Source of the DNA: Myxococcota bacterium
GTDB lineage: Bacteria > Myxococcota_A > Polyangia > Polyangiales > Houyiibacteriaceae
DNA length: 64,000 bases
NCBI GenBank assembly: GCA_039030515.1
Contig: JBCCEA010000005.1
Coordinates: 64,001-128,000 of the forward strand
Direction of reading: 5' to 3'
Part shown: positions 41,826 to 42,843 of the stretch, one piece after another
How the letters are laid out: each line of letters starts with the position of its first letter
Position numbering within the stretch: position 1 is the first letter of the stretch
Position numbers and translations under genes: made by a program
Notes under the pieces: generated by a model
Database searches by the model: none
Told to the model about the DNA's origin: nothing
The model's input: the letters and a program-made list of their open reading frames with translations, nothing else

Positions 41826-42753
41826 GTCCCCCGAGCTGAAGCCGTCCACCCGGGTCCGCTACAAGGACGCCCTCGAACACATCTGCGACCACCTCGGTCA
41901 CGTCTACCTCGACCGTCTCACCGTCGACGACATCGTCGAATGGCGGGATCGTCAGAAGCTCGCCCCGTCGACCGTCAACGGGCGCCTTCGGGTCCTCAGG
42001 ACGATGATGAAGGCGGCAACACACGAGCTTTGCCTCGCACGGAATCCCGCCGAGTACGTCGGGGCGATCCGCGACCCGAAGGACACCGACGACAACGTTC
42101 TGAGCGCGAGCGAGCTGGCCGACGTGCTCGCTTTCGTCGAGAGTGAACGCCCGCACTGGTATCCCTTCTTCCTCACTGCGGCAGTCACCGGCGCACGCTT
42201 TGGGGAACTCTCCGCGCTTCAATGGTCGGACATCGATCACGAGCGGCGCCAGATCCACATTCGACGCGCTCAGGTGCGTGGCCACGTCGGAGACACGAAG
42301 ACCGGCGAGCGTCGCAATGTCCCGATGCCGGAGCAGCTGTCCGAGGCGCTACGAAGCCATCGCCGGCGGCTGGTGGCGGAACAGGCTCCAGGCCTTGCCG
42401 TCGGATGGGTCTTCCCCAGCCGGACCGGCGGCCTGATGTACAACTCATCGCCGTCGAGGGCCCTGAGAGCGGCTTTGAGGCAGTGCGAAATCAGCAGGCC
42501 TTTCACCTTTCACGGATTCAGGCACGCTTTCAACGATTTGACTCGTCGAGAAGTGTCGGGAAAGGTCGTTCGATCTATCACCGGTCACGTCACCGAAAAG
42601 ATGACGGAGCACTACTCCCACGTGGATTTCGAGGAGAAACGACTGGCGGTGAATGCCGTCATCGGCCTGATCGACCGGAGTTGGGAGACAAAAAGTTGGG
42701 ACGCAGGTGGGGACGCCTGCGATCCCCTTGACACCCCCGCCCGCAATAGCTAG
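41569..42753 (+). CDS. Tyrosine recombinase/integrase
   Basis: TGARFGEL (R), TKTG (K), HGFRH (HxxR), TGH, EHYSH (Y); GGAG RBS before ATG 41569. Confidence 0.96.
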   Translation: MRKKSTRTKYPGVKKIAPGRFRVRAKLKDPRTGRFVEIDREIEAGSVRDASLVREELRQEILDVGALLNPQRVTVGEYAKRWASRKSPELKPSTRVRYKDALEHICDHLGHVYLDRLTVDDIVEWRDRQKLAPSTVNGRLRVLRTMMKAATHELCLARNPAEYVGAIRDPKDTDDNVLSASELADVLAFVESERPHWYPFFLTAAVTGARFGELSALQWSDIDHERRQIHIRRAQVRGHVGDTKTGERRNVPMPEQLSEALRSHRRRLVAEQAPGLAVGWVFPSRTGGLMYNSSPSRALRAALRQCEISRPFTFHGFRHAFNDLTRREVSGKVVRSITGHVTEKMTEHYSHVDFEEKRLAVNAVIGLIDRSWETKSWDAGGDACDPLDTPARNS

Positions 42754-42756
42754 GTG
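42728..42756 (+). promoter_or_regulatory. Element-borne replacement promoter for tRNA-Gly
   Basis: TTGACA-17 nt-TAGGTG, 12 nt before the tRNA; overlaps the last integrase codons. Confidence 0.75.
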
Positions 42757-42768
42757 TTTCGACCTCTT

Positions 42769-42843
42769 GCGGGAGTAACTCAGTGGTAGAGTGCAACCTT
42801 GCCAAGGTTGACGTCGCGAGTTCGAATCTCGTCTCCCGCTCCA
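42769..42843 (+). tRNA. tRNA-Gly (GCC)
   Basis: Acceptor stem GCGGGAG/CTCCCGC, anticodon arm CAACC-TTGCCAA-GGTTG, GTTCGAATC T-loop, encoded CCA. Confidence 0.99.

Follow-up and report, generated by a model that had tools for sequence, protein, structure and literature searches.

The window, which is the whole stretch of 64,000 nucleotides analyzed here, contained a satellite-like element of 5,922 bp inserted at a tRNA-Gly(GCC) gene. The element carried an integrase gene (int), an excisionase-like gene (xis), a Rep-like gene, and a gene resembling that of the terminase small subunit (terS-like), as listed in Table 1. The catalytic residues of the integrase (R210, K244, H315, R318, H340, and Y349) were conserved, and its tail past Y349 extended over the arm sites and a −35 box, ending in PLDTPARNS. 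The xis-like ORF overlapped the int start by about 255 nt in a different frame. The Rep-like ORF gave no match at the cut-off in Pfam, PHROG, and NCBIfam, and searches of the element against Pfam, PHROGs, and NCBIfam gave no primase match. The minus-strand cargo, including the TIGR04255 gene, faced the orphaned native tRNA promoter, where antisense RNA is possible.

Table 1. Features of the element and its insertion site, in window coordinates
Feature	Position	Strand	Basis or remark
Native host tRNA-Gly promoter (−35 TTGACA 36808-36813; −10 TACGTG 36831-36836)	36801..36836	+	putative function
attL identity block: 4-nt leader and displaced tRNA-Gly nt 1-40 (36847-36886)	36843..36886	+	
Far (P′) arm 7-mer	36893..36899	+	6/7 match to tRNA 3′ acceptor strand
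P′ arm	36944..37001	+	same order in relatives
P′ accessory-site-like repeats	36944-36974	+	
P′ arm-type direct repeats, 12 nt apart	36982-36989, 36994-37001	+	
Three cargo ORFs (231 aa, 174 aa, 240 aa)	37048..38924	−	
231-aa cargo ORF	within 37048..38924	−	phrog_11836 E 4.8e-7
240-aa cargo ORF, TIGR04255 family	38202-38924	−	E 3.5e-30
Terminase small subunit-like ORF	39234..39770	+	phrog_7344 E 2.9e-10; Pfam matches below cut-off
Rolling-circle Rep-like ORF	40089..41102	+	lead only; ESM Atlas first match REP_ORF2-G2P, score 0.89, TM 0.32
Excisionase-like ORF (HTH_17)	41334..41825	+	Pfam HTH_17 E 0.0017, below cut-off; phrog_66 E 0.008
Tyrosine integrase, 394 aa	41569..42753	+	Pfam PF00589 E 3.6e-23, above cut-off; stop TAG 42751-42753
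P arm-type repeats in int 3′ end	42680-42687, 42695-42702, 42707-42714 (42680..42714)	+	
Element-borne tRNA promoter (−35 TTGACA 42728-42733; −10 TAGGTG 42751-42756)	42721..42756	+	putative
attR identity block (42765-42808) and restored tRNA-Gly(GCC) (42769-42843)	42765..42843	+	

A direct repeat of 44 bp (100% identical) was present at attL and attR. Each copy held a 4 nt leader and nt 1–40 of tRNA-Gly(GCC), ending 3 nt beyond the anticodon loop; this exact repeat agrees with the original prediction that the duplicated segment is the 5′ half of the tRNA up to the anticodon arm. The restored gene consisted of an element-derived 5′ half and a host-derived 3′ half, the latter single and not duplicated by the element. 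The displaced fragment lay on the same strand, 5,922 bp upstream of the intact gene, within the 2–200 kb of the island criterion. ARAGORN and the cloverleaf fold showed an intact target tRNA after insertion. ARAGORN found 45 tRNAs in the 85% complete assembly, from which 8,000 bases were withheld, with this gene as the sole Gly(GCC), and BLAST found no other pieces of tRNA-Gly(GCC) in the genome except the 3′ part common to Gly(TCC). tRNAs such as Phe and Ile(GAT) were absent from the same assembly. The anticodon arm was near-palindromic, as 42794–42810 forms a 17-bp palindrome apart from its centre.

Two orphan genes flanked the tRNA (35526-36692 and 43151-44335); they were paralogues of 29% identity without family hits, and no further copies of them were found elsewhere in the genome. 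Paralogy of the flanking genes would fit an old tandem duplication, but a duplication or an assembly artefact in place of integration is hardly credible, given that the identical repeat ends at the anticodon arm and that the insert has int, xis, and arm repeats. Moreover, the junction from the element into the attR tRNA half was continuous in independent assemblies of three runs, the junction from the left flank into attL in one, and relatives had the same layout. An empty site or circle joint was not seen in four DNA contig sets, in which contigs break at the 44-bp repeat, and no close relative with an empty site was found. Sequencing depth was similar for the element and its flanks.

The repeats near both ends are presumably arm-type and accessory sites, roles that we assigned from the general anatomy of a lambda-type attP. 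Direct repeats at 12-nt spacing lay within the int tail and, as the P′ arm repeats, 95–115 nt inside the far end of the element. No arm repeats were found upstream of the left promoter, which is thus taken as the host's own. A perfect 15-bp inverted copy of the far-arm motif (36944-36958) was located at 41540-41554, just 5′ of the int ribosome-binding site, and of the 68 loci examined, 5, the window included, had the core of this motif in the 120 nt preceding int. The motif and its inverted copy are a candidate for a shared Xis-type site of autoregulation. The int frame closed 15 nt upstream of the tRNA half, with about 49 nt left to the core, and integration therefore neither splits nor alters int.

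The intact tRNA had been claimed to be cut off from its native promoter, and this held: the element was inserted between them and supplied the 5′ half, and the native promoter now faces into the element. A TTGACA-17-TAGGTG motif before the intact tRNA (42728-42756), with the −35 within the last int codons and the int stop TAG as the first half of the −10, was likewise found as predicted. The two promoters were said to occupy the same position, which is approximate. Both have a spacer of 17 nt, but the −35 lay 39 nt before tRNA nt 1 in the native promoter and 41 nt before it in that of the element. Over 8.17 million strand-bases, the genome has only 72 occurrences of TTGAC[AG]-N17-TA, so the motif pair is not due to chance. 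A generic sigma-70 scan listed neither promoter because it requires T at −10 position 6. In the −10 of 51 host tRNA-Gly promoters of relatives, T1 was present in 45, A2 in 51, T5 in 27, and T6 in only 3, a pattern that both the native and the element −10 matched. Against a profile from 50 host tRNA-Gly promoters (leave-one-out range 8.3–23.3), the native and element promoters scored 15.6 and 17.0, respectively. The element promoters of two relatives, L105 (6.7) and L253 (11.6), showed low scores.

Layouts in the integrase family

Integrase loci gathered from genomes, metagenomes, and viral contigs gave 165 matches reaching the catalytic end at ≥33% identity, 133 of them distinct. A first family scan had returned mostly distant Bacteroidota integrases without tRNAs. 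The ordinary layout (A), with int converging on the tRNA 3′ end, was observed in 93 of the 133 loci, and the reversed layout (B), with int followed by the tRNA 5′ end on the same strand, in 9. One further locus had the 3′ half on the same strand, one was an A locus with a decayed end, 20 were without a tRNA piece, and 9 were cut short. Reversed loci therefore made up 9 of the 104 family loci having a tRNA piece; these counts are of loci that are not independent, as a single genus contributed many of the A rows and genome G089 three of the B rows. The unpublished genomes G313 and G142 underlie none of the conclusions. Zhao and Williams reportedly described such a 5′-fragment layout for tRNA-gene islands in 2002.

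The targets of the reversed loci were Gly GCC, Gly CCC, and one Lys (L142, read by eye). Three contigs (L105, L137, and L142) were too short for attL. The 5′ duplication covered tRNA nt 1–38 and was 31.6 kb upstream in G059, and was at 5.3 kb in G036. In G089 the Gly(CCC) 5′ part occurred six times, once within an intact gene, which constitutes an array. On a 38-kb viral contig (L170/L379), arm repeats, promoter, Gly(CCC) 5′ half, and arm repeats followed each other in one piece, 870 nt after the integrase. To judge from this order, the segment is an unintegrated attP with its promoter on board.

Several single loci were of interest in themselves. In the G089 array (C9, C37, C109, and C165; L347, L350, L353, L354, L356, L357), five Gly(CCC) 5′ halves accompanied one intact gene; four or five different promoters were represented, with a low-scoring one in the element adjoining the intact gene. 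In G059 (C10, 186000-224100; L249-L251), a single tRNA-Gly(GCC) was bordered at its 5′ end by the 31.6-kb reversed element and at its 3′ end by at least two ordinary-type remnants whose int ends were truncated. G036 held a pair of Gly(CCC) 5′ fragments (C10:307917 and C11:5098; L348 and L351) with different promoters and nearly the same far arms. A third layout was seen on the viral contig of L178 (4850-5030), where int, arm, and core were followed by the tRNA 3′ half, all on one strand, with 97 bp from arm to core.

Broader scans were less productive. An arm-plus-promoter pattern gave 0 hits in 401 genomes, the window's own among them, so it was too strict. When 371 genomes were searched with tRNA DNA, the matches listed were all full-length genes, with no independent 5′ fragments, and a reversed-clade integrase as query found no new reversed loci in 301 genomes or in viral contigs. 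Viral pattern scans returned 44 and 9 loci, almost all of which were complete tRNAs lacking a family integrase.

Between the last arm repeat and the anticodon, 9 of 9 reversed loci had 84–89 bp. In ordinary loci this interval was 105–114 bp in 75 of 93 and 84–89 bp in 6 of 93, with an anchor uncertainty of some 3 bp. The two layouts differ by roughly two helical turns, which suggests a phase constraint. A 41-nt promoter and 33 nt of tRNA leave 12–16 nt after the arm. In many ordinary loci the arm was already within the int tail, and the integrase tail past the catalytic Tyr varied in length and sequence. Among the 9 reversed loci, the int stop coincided with TA[AG] in the −10 in 3 and with TGA in the −35 in 2, and lay elsewhere in 4. 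Selected coupling of the int stop and the −10 was rejected in view of this variation, so their overlap is a by-product. The 88%-identical protein P0002 ended in RSP, which at the protein level is the −35 region of the window read in another frame.

Function and origin of the element promoter

Conservation of the −35 in related integrase tails, proposed as a check, was clear: eight of the nine reversed loci carried TTGAC 40–42 nt upstream of the tRNA (the ninth, L142, has TTGGAC), against 0 of 93 ordinary loci, where the 60 nt before the tRNA piece were searched. In 7 of the 93 ordinary loci, TTGAC was 5–13 nt away. The element promoter is probably functional on these sequence grounds, and it is plausible that expression of the host tRNA-Gly depends on it, as originally predicted. 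Dependence need not be strict, given an assembly of 85% completeness and possible read-through from xis-int.

The promoter might instead be a captured relic without host dependence, the tRNA being expressed mainly by this read-through or covered by another tRNA-Gly. int and the tRNA run in the same direction, no plus-strand terminator was listed in the interval, and several tRNAs are absent from the incomplete assembly, so that a second Gly(GCC) copy may be missing. In some bacteria, tRNA-Gly(UCC) reads all four Gly codons. However, the −35 was kept at its distance in eight of nine loci, even though the spacers are unrelated and the loci represent three target tRNAs and more than one origin, which implies selection and weakens the relic explanation. 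GGC and GGT also accounted for 36,616 of 65,409 Gly codons in the long ORFs of the genome. We consider a mere relic improbable and a functional promoter the better reading.

The origin of the promoter was assessed over 25 free positions outside the −35 and −10 boxes. The element and its own host agreed at 13 of 25, a value reached by 9% of 1,275 host–host pairs, and the element shared only 4 nt of leader with the present host. With the host tRNA-Gly promoter of G007, the agreement was 20 of 25 (mean over 66 hosts 10.2, sd 3.1) and included a 12-nt run across the spacer and −10. Best-of-panel nulls reached 20 of 25 in 6 of 5,000 and 0 of 5,000 trials. No family integrase was found in the 15 kb surrounding the G007 tRNA. 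An arm-flanked copy in G089 without a nearby integrase was identical to the putative native promoter over 49 nt, and the integrase-linked copy over 24 nt. The element promoter of G059 had 24 nt in common with the native one, the −10 included. The original prediction spoke of a mimic; the ordinary similarity to its own host and the closeness to G007 point to capture, and this wording did not stand. From these comparisons, the element promoter was probably captured from an earlier host.

Five other reversed loci and the viral attP had purine-rich spacers (0.71–0.94), and no panel host matched them above 15 of 25. These loci speak against capture as a general rule, and capture is likely in the window element and some relatives. 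A convergent origin, in which the promoter arose de novo in the int tail with no host DNA taken, would require only TTGAC and TA by the lineage consensus. A spacer purine fraction of ≥0.71 in 6 of 10 element promoters vs. 3 of 51 host promoters suggests a non-host origin in some relatives. For the window, we rate convergence as distinctly unlikely, because the G007 match with its 12-nt run is not expected by chance and exact host copies of 24–49 nt were present in G059 and G089.

Polarity changes and the far arm

The integrase tree was built from 83 A–D rows with ≥250 aligned residues (L001 and L002 omitted), and A rows >85% identical were thinned to leave 65. The 9 reversed rows, three of them from one genome, required 6 changes on this midpoint-rooted tree, at least 4 of them forced by starred branches, and a single origin was seen in 0 of 200 bootstraps. 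Label shuffles gave a number as low as observed in 6 of 500, since four Gly(CCC) rows form one clade. The AU test rejected a single reversed clade with p = 1.0e-4 (31 of the 65 rows, quick tree); its labels were taken from layout and an earlier 106-row tree had already been seen. Reversed L060 nested with ordinary L062 (81% identity) and L075 (79%), and reversed L137 nested with ordinary rows at 75–77% identity (L135 77%). The arm repeats of L060 and L137 resembled those of their ordinary neighbours. The direction of change, ordinary to reversed, is suggested by the numbers (93 vs. 9) and the nesting, with the root placed at the midpoint. By this analysis, the family seems to have switched to the reversed layout at least four separate times.

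The integrase tree would overstate these switches if a reversed att module arose once and spread by recombination downstream of the int core. The spacing is the same in all reversed loci, and the G059 tRNA is flanked by reversed and ordinary elements, so exchange is possible. Nevertheless, arm repeats track the int clade and not the layout, hence exchange would have to fall between arm and core, and promoters and target tRNAs differ among the reversed loci. A single module therefore seems unlikely to us, and repeated switching remains the preferred reading. The tRNA gene is nearly symmetric about its anticodon, as its near-palindromic arm shows, and this probably eases the switch. Both orientations of the tRNA begin alike in the acceptor stem, although the anticodon loops of the Gly(CCC) and Lys targets are less symmetric.

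The far arm contained a further pattern. The 7-mer at attL could pair with tRNA nt 1–7 and belongs to a longer segment folding back onto the tRNA 5′ half (z −3.2 to −3.7). A 7-mer 8–12 nt past the anticodon loop with six of seven positions matching the cognate 3′ acceptor strand was present in 7 of 9 reversed junctions (0.49 expected from shuffles) and in 1 of 19 ordinary junctions (1.03 expected; Fisher p = 2e-4), in a post hoc test made after the pattern was seen, with five junctions from G089. Near-duplicates and unrelated loci (L351, L323, L326, L002, L178) had been dropped. The cognate tRNA fitted better than three other tRNAs tried in 6 of 7 matching junctions. We treat this match in reversed junctions as a lead from the sequence. 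The G036 fragments (L348 and L351) had no such match. The long fold-back hairpin was rejected as a general feature: z was −3.4 here and above −1.2 in the other 8 reversed junctions. One ordinary junction had a z of −2.4.

Proposed mechanism and known systems

The explanation that we favour, with a good degree of confidence, is a lambda-type element that has placed a captured host promoter behind a rebuilt tRNA, in a family that has changed polarity at least four times. The attP order would be int, P arm, promoter, tRNA nt 1–40 with crossover in the anticodon loop, and P′ arm. Integration would leave the native promoter and old 5′ half at attL and rebuild the tRNA at attR behind the element promoter. 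This layout is observed, and the restored tRNA would be transcribed from the element promoter. The promoter would be a genuine host tRNA-Gly promoter acquired by recombination in an earlier host, and exact copies in relatives suggest that the promoter of the current host may later overwrite it via the common tRNA half. It would have to fit an arm-to-core slot of 84–88 bp, about two helical turns below the usual 105–114 bp. This slot would put the −35 about 12–16 nt past the last arm repeat, within an int tail that appears unconstrained and would end at the first stop codon, often inside a promoter box. The family would normally restore the 3′ half and would have flipped to the 5′ layout at least four times.

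A more far-reaching scheme is tentative, and we hold it to be rather doubtful. Polarity would be a switch flipped repeatedly without enzyme change, by capture of a host promoter together with the tRNA 5′ half, the receiving slot being shorter by two helical turns. The far arm would then be selected for a complement of the cognate acceptor strand, so that 5′-half RNA from the orphaned native promoter and from attP might fold into a T-armless tRNA-like form and be processed or neutralised. In the integrated state, an RNase P cut 15 nt after the int stop could give state-dependent control of int mRNA.

Near-identical integrases (77–81%) on the same tRNA in opposite orientations amount to a natural experiment. 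The origin of 5′-restoring elements, the sources of promoters, and attP spacing rules can be tested from such pairs. If the promoter is active, the element controls the level of a tRNA reading over half of the host Gly codons, and in arrays such as that of G089 this control passes to the element adjoining the gene.

In Islander, a 5′ tDNA fragment is recorded for 159 of 3,919 islands, together with an anticodon-centred site A (PMC4383910, passages considered). 5′ recombination is called considerably less frequent in the part of PMC6563490 considered, which cites Zhao & Williams 2002 (J Bacteriol 184:859). The present element resembles these 5′-fragment islands in its tyrosine integrase, upstream 5′ fragment, downstream intact gene, identity ending at the anticodon arm, and tandem arrays. 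Unlike the same passages of PMC4383910, our analysis treats promoter source, fixed arm-to-core spacing, and repeated polarity switching. Promoter origin and repeated polarity change at tRNAs were also not treated in the passages considered of PMC1635311, PMC9897764, PMC5861418, PMC10111431, PMC5812530, and PMC13626063, a partial coverage of the literature.

Supply of a promoter by an element was demonstrated by reporter assay for a dusA-specific IME (IMEVchUSA3), with expression below native, and is stated for ICE SXT in prfC (PMC8409611, in the part considered). As in these systems, the element enters a host gene at its 5′ part and brings a new promoter, here a putative one. Those elements have protein-coding targets, a new N-terminus, and other integrases, whereas the present one has a tRNA target and a promoter in the int tail. 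The Mx8 and SSV integrases extend across attP (passages of PMC4383910), and att-region DNA similarly overlaps the int 3′ end here. Unlike in Mx8 and SSV, the crossover lies outside the int frame (stop 42753, anticodon 42801-42803). The element is like PICI satellites, as described in the part of PMC10111431 considered, in its small size, int, DNA-binding regulator, replication gene, terS, mostly single direction, and tRNA target. It differs from them in that no primase was found and that the replication ORF is Rep-like of the rolling-circle type, as a lead. The layout of the element is rare and already described, and a family-level pattern of repeated polarity change is added here.
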